Below are positions 4,090-8,492 of a stretch of 19,475 nucleotides of DNA, piece by piece (positions within the stretch are counted from its first letter, which is position 1; each line of letters opens with the position of its first letter). The translations under genes and the position numbers were made by a program. This stretch comes from a virus (taxonomy: Duplodnaviria > Heunggongvirae > Uroviricota > Caudoviricetes), in the IMG/VR virus record IMGVR_UViG_2844449076_000008; one strand, 5' to 3'. Below the pieces are notes generated by a model, which had not been told where the DNA came from, did not search any database, and worked only from the letters and a program-made list of their open reading frames with translations.

Positions 4090-4554
4090 CTACTTAATGC
4101 ACTGAGTGCGGATATACTCCTGTGCCCCTTCCAGTTGCATCTGCATCGTCATCAGCCGCTCTCTGAGGGTGAAATAATCCCGTTCAGCGGTGTCTGCCAG
4201 TCGGGGGCTGGTTGCATTATCCACGCCGGAGGCGGTGGTGGCTTCACGCACTGACTGACAGACTGCTTTGATGTGCAACCGACGACGACCAGCGGCAACA
4301 TCAGCGCGCAGAGTTTCATTTTCAGCTTTCGCATCAGCTAACTCCTTCGTGTATTTAGCATCGAGTGCATTAACATCACGCTGTCTCTGCTGCATGTCAG
4401 TAATGGTTGCGTTCGCCAGCTTCAGTTCTCTTGCGTTTTTGTCGCGCTGCTCTTTGTAGGTAATGGCGTTATCACGGTAATGATTAACAGCCCATGACAG
4501 GCAGACGATGATGCAGATAACCAGAGCGGAGATAATCGCGGTGACTCTGCTCAT
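4090..4554 (-). CDS. Rz-like i-spanin
   Basis: ORF 4090-4566; the ATG at 4552-4554 overlaps the endolysin stop (ATGA). N-terminal TM helix followed by a charged coiled-coil-like periplasmic domain; contains the embedded Rz1 ORF in the +1 frame. Confidence 0.8.
4152..4334 (-). CDS. Rz1-like o-spanin lipoprotein (embedded in Rz)
   Basis: 60 aa with signal peptide and lipobox (LPLVVVGC) and a proline-rich mature part (PPPPPA); wholly inside the Rz reading frame in another frame. Confidence 0.7.
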
Positions 4555-5048
4555 TGCTGCCCCCACAAACAGACTTCACGCTCAATCTCACGACGGGTCA
4601 TCAGCCCTTTCCATTGCTTACCGCCAGCATATGTCCAGCGACGTAGCTGGTCACATGCGCCTTTGATATCGCCCTGGTTTATTTTGCGAAGAAGCGTCGA
4701 TGTTCTGAAATTGCCAGCGCCCACGTTGTAAACGAACGAGTAAAGAGCGCCGCGCGTTGTTTCCGGTATATCGACTTTGATGTACGGGTTAATTTGTCTG
4801 GCGACAGTGGCAAGGTCTTTATTCAGGAGGGCTTTGCATTCTGCTTCGGTATACGTTTTACCGAGCATGATGTCTTTTCCGGTGTGTCCGTGACATACAG
4901 TCCATACACCAATGATATCTTTGTATGGTATGTAGCTGACACCTTCCAGACCATCGTTACCACCTGGGCCAGTGATTAACACAGATGCTATAGCAACAGC
5001 CCCACCACCAATAGCAGCTGCAACAGCCTTGCGTAATGATGGCGACAT
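4551..5048 (-). CDS. phage endolysin, T4-lysozyme-like fold with SAR-type N-terminus
   Basis: 165 aa; Gly/Ala-rich weakly hydrophobic N-terminus ([20 protein letters not shown]) followed by E-x8-D-x5-T catalytic spacing ([16 protein letters not shown]); start ATG overlaps the holin stop (TAATG). Confidence 0.88.
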
Positions 5049-5263
5049 TATTCACCTCTCGCAGCCTTACGCTTGTCTTCTCTTATTTTGAAATACAGAT
5101 TTGTCAGATAAGTCAGAAGCCCCAGAAGCAGACTTCCCAGCACACCAATCGCAGCCCACTGTGATGGACTGACCTGATCCAACCACTGCAAAAACCAGTA
5201 GCCGGCACTGCCGGCGGAGGTGCCGTAGGCAATGCCTGTTGATATTTTTTCCATCTGATACAT
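5048..5263 (-). CDS. holin (small class II / pinholin-like)
   Basis: 71 aa with two hydrophobic helices and a charged C-terminus ([13 protein letters not shown]); immediately upstream of and overlapping the SAR endolysin. Resembles S21/EssD-type holins as recalled. Confidence 0.8.
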
Positions 5264-5298
5264 ATCCCGCCCCCCGACAGACCTGTGCTATCGGAAAG

Positions 5299-5329
5299 AA
5301 AAAAGGCCATCAGCAAAACTCTGATGGCC
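5299..5329 (-). terminator. Rho-independent terminator (minus strand) just upstream of the lysis cassette
   Basis: Perfect 9-bp stem GGCCATCAG / CTGATGGCC with a 7-nt loop (5305-5329), followed on the minus strand by TTTTTT (5299-5304). Confidence 0.6.
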
Positions 5330-5943
5330 TGAATCACCTTTACCAATATTGTATGAAAAAACACGCACGACTAATTGACAATAATTTTCATTTCCATTAA
5401 AAAAGATCGCGTAGCATTCTTAATTCATGAGGAACTTTACCCGCCAGCAATCTGAGTAGCGAAAGCTGTTCATCCCCAATGTTTTTGCTGGCGGGTCCTT
5501 TTTTCTACGGTCCTCCTCCCCGGAGGGGGGCATTTCATTATTTTTCTAATCGTTACTGGTGAGAAGGCGGAAGAAAAAGCCAGTTCTTCGCCCCTAAATA
5601 ACAGCATGATTCCAGTCCATGCAAAATCTGATTTCCAGCTCACACATACCGAGCGCTGTACAAAAAACCGCCAGCCAAGGCAGTTAAGAGTGTGTTCCCG
5701 GGGTTTGCTTAGAATATTTTGTAAGTTGTCCGAAGAGATATTTACAACACCAGAATGATGAATCATCAGTCCCCTGCCAGAGGTTCACTACGTAACCTGA
5801 CCGACAATGCACCATTCTGGTGCTGAAAAAAGAGCACTGGAACTGCAACAAAACAACATCACAGAACAGGAGATGGTAAGGAGTCAGACATTCCCACACA
5901 ATATTGTGTCAGTGCAAATAACAACCTTCGTCTCAAATCTCGC

Positions 5944-6018
<75 letters not shown>

Positions 6019-6021
6019 ATA

Positions 6022-6097
<76 letters not shown>

Positions 6098-6099
6098 GC

Positions 6100-6176
6100 T
6101 GGCCCACCACCGAGGACTCGAACCTCGCACCGTCAACTTAGAAGGTTGATGCTCTATCCGGATGAGCTAGTGGTGG
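6100..6176 (-). tRNA. tRNA-Arg (anticodon UCU)
   Basis: Acceptor CCACCAC/GTGGTGG, D-stem GCTC/GAGC, anticodon stem TCAAC/GTTGA, loop CTTCTAA, T-arm CGAGG-TTCGAGT-CCTCG, CCA encoded. Confidence 0.8.
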
Positions 6177-6177
6177 T

Positions 6178-6254
6178 TGGTGGCCCTTGCTGGACTTGAA
6201 CCAGCGACCTGGCGATTATGAGTCGCTCGCTCTGACCAACTGAGCTAAAGGGCC
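6178..6254 (-). tRNA. tRNA with CAU anticodon, ileX/ileY-like (tRNA-Ile2 lysidine type; could be called tRNA-Met by anticodon alone)
   Basis: GGCCCTTTAGCTCAG...CGACTCATAATCGCC...GGTTCAAGTCCAGCAAGGGCCACCA; homologous over its whole length to the ileY-like tRNA at 17601-17676 in this window. Confidence 0.8.
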
Positions 6255-6263
6255 GGAGGCAGA

Positions 6264-6292
6264 ATAATAACCATATGTCATCACATCTGCAA
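6264..6292 (-). promoter_or_regulatory. candidate sigma70 promoter for the tRNA array
   Basis: Minus strand TTGCAG (6287-6292), 17-bp spacer, TATTAT (6264-6269); predicted start 2-3 nt upstream of the first tRNA 5' end at 6254. Confidence 0.4.
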
Positions 6293-6342
6293 ACTCATCT
6301 GACCACCAGCACGTTTAACGTCCTGTGCCGTTTTTCAGGTAT

Positions 6343-6365
6343 AAAAAAACCCGCTCATCGGCGGG
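6343..6365 (-). terminator. Rho-independent terminator downstream of the ORF6N gene
   Basis: Stem CCCGC / GCGGG with 6-nt loop (6350-6365), followed on the minus strand by a 7-T run (6343-6349). Confidence 0.6.
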
Positions 6366-6443
6366 TTTAAGCTGTGTGGCGTAGTAACCACTCTTAACAG
6401 GATATTCAACTTTTTACGATCGTAAAGTTTTCGGAAAAAATTT

Positions 6444-7007
6444 TTAAAACCGCATCAACCGCTCCACCAGTTGCTCTTTACGGGCAACGATCCACCCGTG
6501 TTGCTCCAGATAAAATTTAAACCGTTCCAGAGTACATACCATCGCATCGGCGGGTACCTTTTCCGTGAACTCAACCTGACCGTGTTTATCGAAGTGGCTC
6601 AGTAATGCGCATCCATCATTTTCGATAGATGTGTTTTGTGCCGCTGGTGGCTGTTTCTGGTTGAAATAACAGTCTTCCAGTTTTTCGAACACTTCCCACG
6701 CCTGATCGGTTTCGAGCATTTTGGCGTGACGGGCTGCGCCACGTTCTGTCCAGAGGATGAGGGAGCGAACGTTACGGGCAATTTTCACAGAAACTCTTAA
6801 AGAGTTTTCGTTCTTCAACTCTCGTAACGCATCACCTTCTATCAGGAAAAAATGTTTACCTTCTATAAACCGTTCTTTGTTTCGATTGAAATTGTTTGTC
6901 AAACGCTGGCGCTCTGTTCCGTACAAATCAGCCAGCAGCTCTGTTGTCATGACAGGAAGATGGTTATGCGTAAGTGACGGGAGTTTTTCAATAGACGTGC
7001 GATTCAT
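6444..7007 (-). CDS. ORF6N-domain protein with KilAC-like C-terminus (phage antirepressor-like)
   Basis: ORF runs to 7205, but the ATG at 7005-7007 has an AGGA RBS at 7-nt spacing (MNRTSIEKLP...). Central region (LPVMTTELLADLYGTERQRLTNNFNRNKERFIEGKHFFLIEGDALRELK...RVSVKIARNVRSLILWTERGAARHAKMLETDQAWEVFEKLED) matches my recollection of the ORF6N DNA-binding domain. Confidence 0.55.
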   Translation of the reverse strand: MNRTSIEKLPSLTHNHLPVMTTELLADLYGTERQRLTNNFNRNKERFIEGKHFFLIEGDALRELKNENSLRVSVKIARNVRSLILWTERGAARHAKMLETDQAWEVFEKLEDCYFNQKQPPAAQNTSIENDGCALLSHFDKHGQVEFTEKVPADAMVCTLERFKFYLEQHGWIVARKEQLVERLMRF

Positions 7008-7364
7008 AGACATGTCCTTTCGAATATTTTGATTTACCCCTTTTGAGAGGGTGACCGGGCGCTCAAAACCGTCGAAAGTCGGCGGGCGTATTTCCATTGC
7101 TGGTATTGTATTAGCCGCACACCCGGTCATAAACCAAGAATTCTGGACACAAAAAAACCACATGGCTATCGGGTGTGGATACCGCTTTCGAGGTGTTTTG
7201 AGCACCGCGGGGAAATGTAAACTGCAAACCTGAAACTGTCAACACCGTCAGGTTCCAATCATCGGGTGGTGAGACGCACAGGGTTGGAACTACCGGGAAA
7301 CCGACCGGCGAGCTTTTCAGCTCCCCCATGCGCCCCACCATAATTCAGATGTGCGCGTGCATAC

Positions 7365-7392
7365 GACAATAAAAAACACGCTCGCGGCGTGT
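7365..7392 (-). terminator. tR'-like terminator downstream of the late promoter
   Basis: Stem ACACGC / GCGTGT with loop TCGCG (7376-7392), followed on the minus strand by TTTTTTATTGTC. Confidence 0.5.
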
Positions 7393-7453
7393 GTCTGTCG
7401 CGGTCTCTATCCGGGGTTCCAATCCCGACGCCAGATTTTGCTGGCGCGTGAGG

Positions 7454-7483
7454 AATATAGCCCCGGACAATGTGTCTGGTCAA
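7454..7483 (-). promoter_or_regulatory. pR'-like late promoter (Q-utilisation region expected to overlap)
   Basis: Minus strand TTGACC (7478-7483), 18-bp spacer, TATATT (7454-7459), beginning 5 nt after the Q stop codon; followed by hairpin CGCCAG-ATTTTG-CTGGCG at about 7430-7447 and then the tR'-like terminator. Confidence 0.5.
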
Positions 7484-7487
7484 GCAC

Positions 7488-7874
7488 CTACATAATTCGT
7501 TCTACGTATCTGTCCATCTCCAGCCGGATATCAAGCATCATCAACATGCCATCAATAACCCCTTCCGCTTTCTGCAGGCGCTTGCCAATACAGGTATCCG
7601 AACACCCATGTTTCCGTGCCAGACTCATAAAAGTCATTCCACCTACGTAATAATCCACCAGCAAATCGTGCAAATCCTGATTTTTCTTGTTCAACCGGGC
7701 CATACAGCCACAAATTATCATTGCATCATCATCAGAACACTGAGGGCGTGATTTCACTTTCGACGGAATTAACCCTTTAAAACCAGCAGCGATCGACGCC
7801 CAGGATACATCTTCATGAGTGTTTGCAGCCCAAGCCCCCCACCGTTCCATAACCTGCTGAATATCACGCGCCAT
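7488..7874 (-). CDS. late-gene antitermination protein Q (Stx-phage 933W-type Q family, from recollection)
   Basis: ORF 7488-7895; the internal ATG at 7872-7874 has an AGGTGA RBS ([23 protein letters not shown]...). Cys-rich motifs [12 protein letters not shown] and CSDTC. Sits directly upstream of the pR'-like promoter and downstream of rusA. Confidence 0.65.
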
Positions 7875-8235
7875 CGTTATCACCTGTGATTTCATAAATC
7901 TTCACGCCCAGTCGCCCACCAGGAACGAGCTGACCGCGCACAATATTGATTTCATCAAACTGCTCGTCGTCTATGAGTAGTCCGGCATGCGTCAGCGCAT
8001 CCAGTGGTGCTTTCAGGATATTGTCCAGGTCACGACGGCGCTTATCCGGTGGCTCTGCAATAATCTTTATCGCCAGCCTTCCGGACAGGTTTAATTTCAG
8101 CCGCTGCTGGCGAACAATTAGCGTCACATCACGGCGATAACGCTCACCAACTTTTGATACAAAATATGTGCTGCCACGACGTCGCCAGTAAGTATTCACC
8201 GTCGGCGGATAAGGTAAAATAAACTCATGGCGCAT
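7864..8235 (-). CDS. rusA: RusA-type Holliday junction resolvase
   Basis: 123 aa; [16 protein letters not shown]-terminal motif and acidic RRRDLDN...DDEQ segment typical of RusA; start overlaps the upstream ORF stop. Confidence 0.85.
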
Positions 8236-8492
8236 CAGCGCAGCACCTCCTGCACCATTTTTTCAAACTTTCCAACTTTGGTTTCCAGCTCTGCCACACA
8301 ATCAACGAGCTCATCCACCGCTTTTTGTGCGCGATGTTTCGCCTGCATCAGTTCCCTGAGCGCTGGCACCATATCCCGACGAATGGCATCTTTTGTTACA
8401 CCTGTTTTTTCCAGTTGTTCCGCCTGTCGCAACATTTCCTGCGCGTGTTTACGCAATTGTTCAGAGGTAAAAGTCATTGTCTGGTTGTTCAA
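8235..8492 (-). CDS. hypothetical protein (predicted helical / coiled-coil), nin-region-like position
   Basis: 85-aa ORF translationally coupled on both sides (4-nt overlap with the helicase stop, 1-nt overlap with the rusA start). No motif recognised. Confidence 0.45.
   Translation of the reverse strand: MNNQTMTFTSEQLRKHAQEMLRQAEQLEKTGVTKDAIRRDMVPALRELMQAKHRAQKAVDELVDCVAELETKVGKFEKMVQEVLR

Follow-up and report, generated by a model that had tools for sequence, protein, structure and literature searches.

Two exchangeable non-coding modules, probably small RNAs and terminators, between the tRNA genes and the holin gene of a prophage late operon

The late operon on the minus strand of IMG/VR virus record IMGVR_UViG_2844449076_000008 (19,475 nucleotides, a stretch that we call the window) contains, between its tRNA-Gly gene and its holin gene, a 680-bp interval (5264-5943) which is a mosaic of two conserved non-coding modules with a junction near 5644. 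Module A, on the tRNA side, continues from the 3' end of tRNA-Gly as a structured trailer, while module B, on the holin side, combines a candidate antisense unit with a sense terminator. We lean towards the view that the interval is a compact non-coding control region composed of two horizontally exchanged modules, which are probably small RNAs together with terminators. A preliminary description of this DNA had placed a slot of 680 bp between the tRNA genes and the holin, endolysin and Rz genes, and both the coordinates and the gene order are borne out by ARAGORN and by the match of the holin to PF04971. It had also pointed to strong secondary-structure elements, which recur here as inverted repeats of 12 bp, 10 bp and 31 nt, with z scores of -5.3, -2.8 and -4.0 for the main elements, and had suggested that the slot may encode RNA, a reading that appears best supported by comparison with related sequences.

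The mosaic structure is evident from the distribution of the two parts. When complete E. coli genomes are searched by megablast the whole 680 bp are found in only 9 of them, while the holin-proximal 381 bp (5264-5644) return about 1,500 records at about 85-87% identity. With a more sensitive search, 1,451 of the 5,426 complete E. coli genomes (about 27%) prove to contain module B, at 948 chromosomal and 643 plasmid places, and PLSDB holds 558 plasmids with this module, 523 of them conjugative. The preliminary description had held that a spacer common to many phages, conserved and not expressed, would speak against its reading; as regards the holin-proximal 380 bp, such a spacer is indeed common. 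In every lineage homology to module B begins within about 15 nt of window position 5644. The tRNA-proximal part has a different set of relatives, being 71-74% similar by blastn to the sequence after tRNA-Gly in SerU-LTIIb and vB_EcoS-683R6.

Both the interval and its holin-proximal half recur in other surroundings. A unit of 1.1 kb (5270-6368), comprising the upstream terminator, the tRNA genes and the slot, has a 99% identical copy with different flanks in S. flexneri SFBU1023, and positions 5270-6277 recur at 99.6%, again with different flanks, in E. coli ECMA0423, where the copy is cut by the end of the locus; recurrence amid different flanks suggests that the unit is mobile. In the SFBU1023 copy (L131 5342-6538) the gene for an IS110-family transposase abuts the holin-proximal end of the slot, and homology to the window ends at 5270, 7 nt short of the holin ATG. 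Orphan copies of module B occur on the ColV-type plasmid p111 (L005 4001-4344; 344 bp, about 380 bp from iss) and, between insertion sequence (IS) remnants and a few kb from papI, on islands of uropathogenic E. coli (UPEC; L009 3001-3344 and L010 3001-3222); the left boundary is common to all these copies.

That no conserved ORF is involved follows from several searches. The longest ORFs of the interval, both on the minus strand, encode 98 aa (5470..5766) and 71 aa (5684..5899), the lengths given in the preliminary description, which had judged that no credible ORF is present. Neither these nor the shorter ORFs on both strands have a Pfam or PHROG match, and the 10 longest of 18 six-frame stop-to-stop segments of at least 28 aa were without a Pfam match even at E<=1. 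Nine E. coli genomes contain this 680-bp stretch at 99-100% identity, and in none of them does RefSeq annotate anything within it. We regard it as very improbable that the interval encodes a small protein, be it one of the two minus-strand ORFs or a 63-aa ORF found in the AR_0086 lineage. Such ORFs do exist, an AGGGGA motif lies just 5' of ORF 5470..5766, and NCBI lists "hypothetical protein" entries for near-identical Shigella copies and, in RefSeq, for the 63-aa ORF. However, among 5.8 billion proteins the 98-aa ORF finds six entries, of which four are "hypothetical" Shigella translations 87-100% identical to it and two match 46% of the query with 71% identity; the named relatives are Shigella flexneri entries only, and the sole relatives of this ORF are near-identical DNA copies. 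The same ORF runs through the trailer terminator and the mosaic junction, and in the other trailer variants its frame, as read off the trailer alignment, meets a stop after about 20 codons. Four of the five lineages, namely that of the window and three others, have frame shifts in the 63-aa ORF, which is there broken over two to three frames.

Module A begins one base past the CCA of tRNA-Gly (5944-6018 on the minus strand, the last of four tRNAs called by ARAGORN) and consists of a structured 5' domain of about 205 nt, a short linker and an intrinsic terminator. On the minus strand from 5944 to 5660 the promoter scan called no promoter-like site, and the nearest called site (6030..6003) falls within the tRNA genes and is probably spurious; because no separate promoter is evident, we infer that the trailer is co-transcribed with the tRNAs. 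Lying between the last tRNA and the operon terminator 5685..5666 without a called promoter of its own, it occupies the position of a 3' external transcribed spacer (3'ETS). Relatives of the trailer follow tRNA-Gly in SerU-LTIIb (two copies), in vB_EcoS-683R6 and in IMG/VR contigs that contain a tRNA-Gly 3' end. A 24-nt trailer motif is present in 72 IMG/VR contigs; of about 185,000 species-representative genomes only 2 contain it, an S. flexneri and an E. coli genome. Everything after the tRNA-Gly 3' end in the fetched loci amounts to 94 copies, and the 52 unique sequences among these constitute a trailer family with three subtypes.

The consensus fold of this family, computed with RNAalifold from an alignment of 49 sequences, has 45 pairs in six helices. 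Standard pairs occupy 97.6% of its 2,103 pair cells, as against 32-57% when the partners are slid by 1-3 columns, and 34 cells are changed on both sides compared with 8.7 +/- 2.4 in shuffles, a value that none of 500 shuffles reaches. The covariation score is 0.183 against 0.152 in the shuffles, and again no shuffle among 500 attains it; relatedness inflates the shuffle control for all these measures. On the opposite strand the pairs form in only 77.4% of cells, 20.5% of cells being G-U, and since it is these G-U cells that leave the opposite strand so poorly paired, the fold belongs to the tRNA and late strand. Base pairs of module A are, in short, kept across divergent homologues in a strand-specific manner. 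The most prominent element, helix 5, derives from a 31-nt imperfect inverted repeat (5741-5771/5799-5829); 98.9% of its family cells are paired, although 13 of the 23 pairs vary, mostly from G-U to A-U or G-C, and two are altered on both sides. It is the comparison with related copies that makes the case for a trailer RNA.

The terminator that closes module A aligns with the AACCGCC...GGCGGTTTTTTTT terminator of L110-type and long-variant trailers; the window copy and the trailers of the L110 subtype end in AACYGCC...GGCGGTTTTTT, aligned with the terminator of the long variant. In long-variant trailers an additional stretch of about 100 nt, missing from the short variant of the window, separates the 5' domain from the terminator. 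Two such long trailers (L004 3090-3286 and L121 2824-3018) give full-length alignments to STnc100 at 22.9 and 27.1 bits, relative to a gathering score of 47, an indication that the tRNA operons of some prophages carry a fused STnc100-like RNA.

Conservation of module B is uneven among its five lineages, with peaks at 5624-5642, 5450-5507 and 5296-5335. The best conserved block is a hairpin on the plus strand, antisense to the late operon, in which 0.8-0.95 of columns are invariant compared with 0.25-0.7 in the flanks. About 60 nt upstream of this 12-bp hairpin lies the TTGACA of a candidate promoter, invariant in the five lineages that retain the region; in the AR_0086 lineage an 18-nt spacer leads to a -10 of AAAAAT. 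The predicted antisense RNA would comprise a 5' single-stranded region, a 12-bp outer stem (the perfect inverted repeat 5439-5450/5485-5496), an inner hairpin of 8 bp whose loop is GAAA, and a U6 run at 5499-5504. The plus-strand segment 5405-5510 folds at -34.2 kcal/mol (z=-3.97), and the hairpin by itself at -28.8 kcal/mol (z=-5.31). Both the U-run and the inner hairpin specify the plus strand: a U-run 3' of the hairpin is found on that strand only, the late strand having an A-run before the hairpin and no U-run after it, and the inner hairpin depends on G-U pairs, so that it forms only in a plus-strand RNA. Conservation and anatomy, and these only, point to a plus-strand small RNA of about 95 nt. 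The covariance model built from the unit, R1, recovers its own family only; the Pas loci and 75 further loci contain no match.

Six nt past the U6 run starts a second plus-strand hairpin, probably a back-up terminator for the antisense unit. The G run at 5524-5529 within it (a C run on the late strand) has a length of 4, 5 or 6 nt in otherwise identical IMG/VR copies (L013, L015, L022), and is a slippage-prone tract whose length alters the stem. As to a sense-strand promoter in module B, the sole candidate (5565..5537) is not conserved, its copies in other lineages being broken by indels and substitutions, and it was discarded.

On the late strand module B ends with the sense terminator, the stem of which is the inverted repeat 5304-5313/5321-5330, followed by U6CUUUC, about 40 nt upstream of the holin ATG. 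It folds at -18.5 kcal/mol (z=-2.83), is kept in all holin-linked lineages, and has a counterpart at the equivalent position upstream of the holins in E2348/69, L004 and L110; it may act as an insulator against transcription not modified by Q. Overall, terminator-like sites are in excess in the region 4900-8400 (9 as against 3.5 +/- 2.2 expected), five of them within the slot, and a GC-rich hairpin with a U-run marks predicted intrinsic terminators at 5330..5304 and 5685..5666 on the minus strand and at 5439-5504 and 5510-5545 on the plus strand. On the minus strand the terminator 3' arm and U-run (5313..5289) are also imperfectly complementary, over 25 nt and at 72%, to holin codons 2-9 (5260..5236), which include the Met4 start. 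This complementarity could give an alternative structure affecting the choice of holin start; it is largely that of a U-run with an A-run and may be due to chance.

We propose that module A is the 3' trailer of a prophage tRNA operon, which would consist of the promoter-like site 6293..6264, four tRNAs, about 280 nt of structured RNA and the terminator 5685..5666, and which, because its upstream flank is itself a terminator (6368..6347), would form a self-contained insert. In the lysogen this unit would be transcribed from its own promoter to its own terminator, and tRNA processing would set the trailer free, as it does 3'ETS-leuZ, in the form of a stable RNA capped by the terminator. Module B would be the leader of the lysis cassette, with a small plus-strand unit convergent with late transcription, the product of which would be an antisense or trans-acting small RNA complementary to the late leader, of the PasA/PasC, AsxR/AgvB or PapR kind. 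Polymerase without the Q modification would be halted in turn at 6368..6347, 5685..5666 and 5330..5304, so that in the lysogen the holin and lysis genes would be kept off by the successive terminators and the tRNA and small-RNA units would still be expressed; once the prophage is induced, polymerase modified by Q would pass all three. A stronger version, which we put forward tentatively, is that both halves are undescribed functional RNA genes, the trailer representing a new family of phage tRNA-operon 3'ETS and the plus-strand unit a new antisense small RNA. In that case the 5' trailer domain of about 205 nt, freed by tRNA processing, may act as a regulatory or sponge RNA in lysogens, and the plus-strand unit may be kept on ColV plasmids beside iss and on UPEC islands for the benefit of the host, not as mere phage debris.

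Several observations weigh against the interpretation of the interval as a control region with small RNAs. Transcription, processing, RNA stability, targets and the insulator role are all inferred from sequence features. In the trailer, pairs with two-sided change number only 6 compared with 4.4 expected, an unremarkable figure reached by 81 of 500 shuffles, and the folding energy of the window copy as a single sequence is unexceptional (z=-1.29). The -10 of the antisense promoter (TAAAAA) is poor, lacking the final T, and the promoter scan, which requires T at position 6 of the -10, made no call. Module B exists in about five sequence lineages with an almost invariant outer stem, which leaves no scope for a covariation test, and two single changes in the stem conflict as to strand, that in L056 favouring plus and that in the ColV copy favouring minus. 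Two IMG/VR scans for more divergent relatives of the antisense hairpin, one with the inner loop and one with the outer stem, returned essentially the same contigs (48 and 47) in about five variants. That the copies are so alike may be owed to recent horizontal spread and not to selection; and because the prophage is truncated by IS elements at the DnaB-like gene, its late operon may be dead.

In one alternative the interval is a passive spacer, its hairpins are terminators separating the tRNA unit from the lysis cassette, no stable functional RNAs are made, and conservation results from recent horizontal spread and from hitch-hiking with the tRNAs and the holin. We give this alternative appreciable weight without expecting it to hold. 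It accords with the fact that the lineages of module B are all at least 85% alike and the window variant nearly clonal, with the weak, uncalled -10 and the lack of covariation in module B, and with the truncation of the orphan copies on plasmids and pathogenicity islands, which have IS remnants at their flanks. It does not readily explain why conservation in module B peaks on the plus-strand hairpin, which cannot terminate late transcription because it is oriented against it, nor why the trailer keeps a 23-bp helix despite 13 varying pairs, strand-specifically and in three subtypes, which exceeds what a terminator needs. Moreover, RNAs at this position have been experimentally verified in related prophages (PMC4104026, PMC8550237).

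The interval also sits where a Stx-type (Shiga toxin-type) cargo site would be expected, downstream of Q (7895..7488) and the tRNAs (6254..5944) and upstream of the holin (5263..5048), and the preliminary description had called it "empty" and perhaps a "decayed moron site". Such a site, vacated or left with an eroded toxin or accessory gene (stxAB, nanS-p or a methyltransferase), would be consistent with related prophages, in which the same position holds stx, LT-II-associated genes, nanS-p, methyltransferases and other cargo. We nonetheless consider it improbable. The Pfam and PHROG searches of the tested ORFs and segments described above revealed neither a cargo gene nor a protein-family remnant, and what occupies the slot instead is two discrete conserved modules, both intact as non-coding sequence in many genomes. 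Comparison with phages by BLASTN, which had been suggested as a check of the cargo site, gives it no support either: megablast of the interval against 50,697 phage records, Stx phages included, finds no match, and blastn against the phage collection yields solely the trailer similarity and the last 50 nt of the interval.

The wider setting of the two modules is given in Table 1. The preliminary order of Q, pR'/tR', tRNA genes, slot and holin is right in placing the slot downstream of Q and the tRNAs, and passes over a C4-RNA/ORF6N module between these two; the ORF neighbouring the tRNAs is an ORF6N antirepressor-like gene, not Q. This module (7460..6444, minus strand), in which c4-a1b1, isrK and C4 precede the ORF6N gene, resembles the immI region of P1 and, in layout, the isrK-anrP locus of Gifsy-1, and is placed here within the leader of the late operon. 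Inside the ORF6N coding sequence Rfam gives a full-length match to sRNA-Xcc1 (7128..7045, minus strand; 77.4 bits against a gathering score of 53). The tRNA array is identical to that of CFSAN029787, where it is annotated as tRNA-Ile/Arg/Thr/Gly. At the DnaB-like gene the prophage is cut by IS3-family elements, beyond which are a fragment of an AIDA-type autotransporter, three IS1 copies, two of them in tandem, and a lone tRNA-Met (17601-17676), the whole set lying in window 9716-12168, 12567-14075 and 17038-19281. Given this truncation, and protein relatives of the largest slot ORF that are named solely as Shigella flexneri, the window probably derives from a defective prophage of S. flexneri.

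Table 1. Features of the interval and of the surrounding late operon (window coordinates)
Feature	Coordinates	Strand	Basis or remarks
Module A, tRNA-Gly trailer RNA (predicted), short variant	5660..5943	-	homologous sequence after tRNA-Gly in relatives
Trailer long hairpin, helix 5, 23 pairs	5741..5829	-	inverted repeat and single-sequence fold
Trailer terminator (predicted), stem AACUGCC/GGCGGUU 5685..5666, then UUUUUUG	5660..5685	-	terminator scan; fold -10.7 kcal/mol
Module B, holin-upstream non-coding module	5264..5644		~85-87% identity across E. coli
Candidate antisense promoter, -35 TTGACA 5375-5380, 17-nt spacer, -10 TAAAAA 5398-5403	5375..5403	+	
Predicted antisense (convergent) small RNA, ~95 nt	~5410..5504	+	fold, conservation; 5' end inferred from promoter
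Second plus-strand hairpin GUCCUCCUC/GGAGGGGGGC, U-rich tail	5510..5545	+	terminator scan; fold -15.5 kcal/mol
Sense intrinsic terminator (predicted), perfect 10-bp stem AGGCCAUCAG/CUGAUGGCCU 5330..5304, then UUUUUUCUUUC	5295..5330	-	terminator scan
DnaB-like helicase	9700..8489	-	
RusA	8235..7864	-	
Antiterminator Q	7895..7488	-	PF06530
Promoter-like site	7483..7454	-	promoter scan
c4-a1b1 targets	7460..7408	-	Rfam, 50 bits
isrK	7447..7371	-	Rfam, 77.5 bits
C4 antisense RNA	7345..7262	-	Rfam, 71 bits
ORF6N-domain protein, antirepressor-like, 253 aa	7205..6444	-	adjoins tRNAs
Intrinsic terminator upstream of tRNAs (predicted)	6368..6347	-	terminator scan
Promoter-like site before tRNAs	6293..6264	-	promoter scan
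tRNA array of four, Ile2/Met(CAU)-Arg(UCU)-Thr(UGU)-Gly(UCC)	6254..5944	-	ARAGORN, Rfam tRNA matches
S21-type (P21-type) class II holin, Met1/Met4 dual starts, first lysis-cassette gene	5263..5048	-	PF04971, E=1.5e-35
Lysozyme	5048..4551	-	
Rz	4566..4090	-	
HNH endonuclease, small and large terminase, portal	after Rz in late operon	-	

In lambdoid prophages, Shiga toxin and other virulence cargo reside in the gap that separates Q from the lysis genes, a region increasingly seen as rich in small RNAs by which host regulation is rewired. To this gap we add two candidate RNA families that lie outside Rfam and match none of the prophage small RNAs checked, the trailer having good comparative support and the antisense unit being suggested by its conservation and anatomy. 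The trailer is fused to a phage tRNA operon and, if confirmed, would extend to phages the idea of the tRNA spacer as regulator; the antisense candidate is carried by roughly one in four sequenced E. coli, with ColV plasmids and UPEC islands among its locations. A cargo site that looks vacant can be a control module, complete and exchangeable, the terminators of which would keep the lysis genes dependent on Q, and this bears on the annotation of prophages and on predicting which of their parts remain active after decay. The advance is incremental, because the architecture has already been described, and the interval is ordinary in kind, since known prophage architecture explains it.

For module A a close parallel is 3'ETS-leuZ of E. 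coli, a tRNA-operon 3' external transcribed spacer which Lalaouna and colleagues are said to have described in 2015 as a small-RNA sponge. Both that spacer and the trailer lie between the last tRNA and the intrinsic terminator of the operon, whereas the trailer, at about 280 nt, has a large conserved fold, is phage-borne and is a predicted RNA; 3'ETS-leuZ is listed as a small RNA (PMC8550237 table S2).

A second point of reference is STnc100/PasD (RF02076), a sense small RNA found just upstream of module B in prophages from ExPEC (extraintestinal pathogenic E. coli; L002 4698-4886, 114.5 bits); the sub-threshold alignments of the long-variant trailers to STnc100 fall at this relative position. 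In contrast, the short-variant trailer of the window is without that domain, giving no match at E<=10, and the conserved 5' domain of the trailer falls outside the STnc100 model. In these ExPEC prophages (L002 4698-4930; L133 1387-1407) STnc100 and a convergent sequence resembling the 3' end of PapR, with one mismatch, precede module B; since the PapR 5' end is absent from the L002/L133 site, the antisense sequence there is a relative of PapR, not PapR itself. In the window the tRNA trailer holds the place taken by this pair. Module B had itself been suspected of being the PapR of UTI89, because its orphan copies lie near papI, and this identification was rejected, PapR ends being absent from module B. 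The ends were derived from published cloning primers; the sequence of the 5'-end (forward) primer has no match in the window at up to 3 mismatches, and the 3' end was searched in the fetched loci only, a set that does not include the window.

With the late region of Stx phages (Q, pR', tRNA genes, stxAB, in some cases nanS-p, holin) the window shares the order of the genes, the presence of tRNA genes for rare codons, and lysis genes whose expression depends on reading through several terminators; it differs in having no toxin or cargo gene or remnant, and in the C4-RNA/ORF6N module between Q and the tRNAs. In lambdoid prophages of enterohaemorrhagic E. coli convergent small-RNA genes, including AsxR and AgvB, are located at the moron site downstream of pR' (Tree 2014, PMC4104026). 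AsxR (RF02703) and AgvB (RF02702) resemble the present unit in this site, downstream of a Q-dependent pR' and before the lysis genes, and in the convergent arrangement of sense and antisense units, and differ in length (51-60 nt as against about 95 nt for the candidate) and in that their sponge function has been tested. An Rfam scan (cmscan 5200-6000, E<=10) gave no match within the slot to any family, AsxR, AgvB, Esr41 and STnc100 included.

Similar loci are those of PasA and PasC in the enteropathogenic E. coli strain E2348/69, which adjoin the holin/lysozyme operon (Pearl Mizrahi 2021, PMC8550237; Zhu, Shabalina & Storz 2026, bioRxiv 10.64898/2026.05.13.724894). According to the tables from RIL-seq, in which interacting RNAs are ligated and sequenced, and the E2348/69 sequence, these RNAs are on the strand opposite the holin and have GCCAGC.../...GCUGGC hairpins followed by U-runs, with a sense terminator before the holin. 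Shared with module B are the position, within lambdoid prophages, in a non-coding stretch that immediately precedes a class II holin gene, the antisense orientation to the late operon, the 3' terminator hairpin with its U-run, and the sense terminator between the unit and the holin. The hairpin of the window is, however, longer (12 bp plus an inner 8-bp hairpin), its upstream neighbour is a tRNA trailer and not the nanS-p esterase gene of the Pas loci, and expression and Hfq binding have been demonstrated for the Pas RNAs, whereas the present unit is known from sequence alone. Homology to PasA and PasC was considered, the GCCAGCA/UGCUGGC stem and the CGAAAG loop being alike by eye, and was rejected: blastn at word size 7 returned nothing, and covariance model R1 had no match in the Pas loci L006 and L007 at E<=10. 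The phage vB_EcoS-683R6 and the IMG/VR contig L110 have the same architecture with different antisense units. The order observed in the window, a sense RNA with its terminator, an antisense unit, a sense terminator and the holin, is that of the Pas loci, and the layout as a whole is the already known arrangement of convergent small RNAs between Q and holin.

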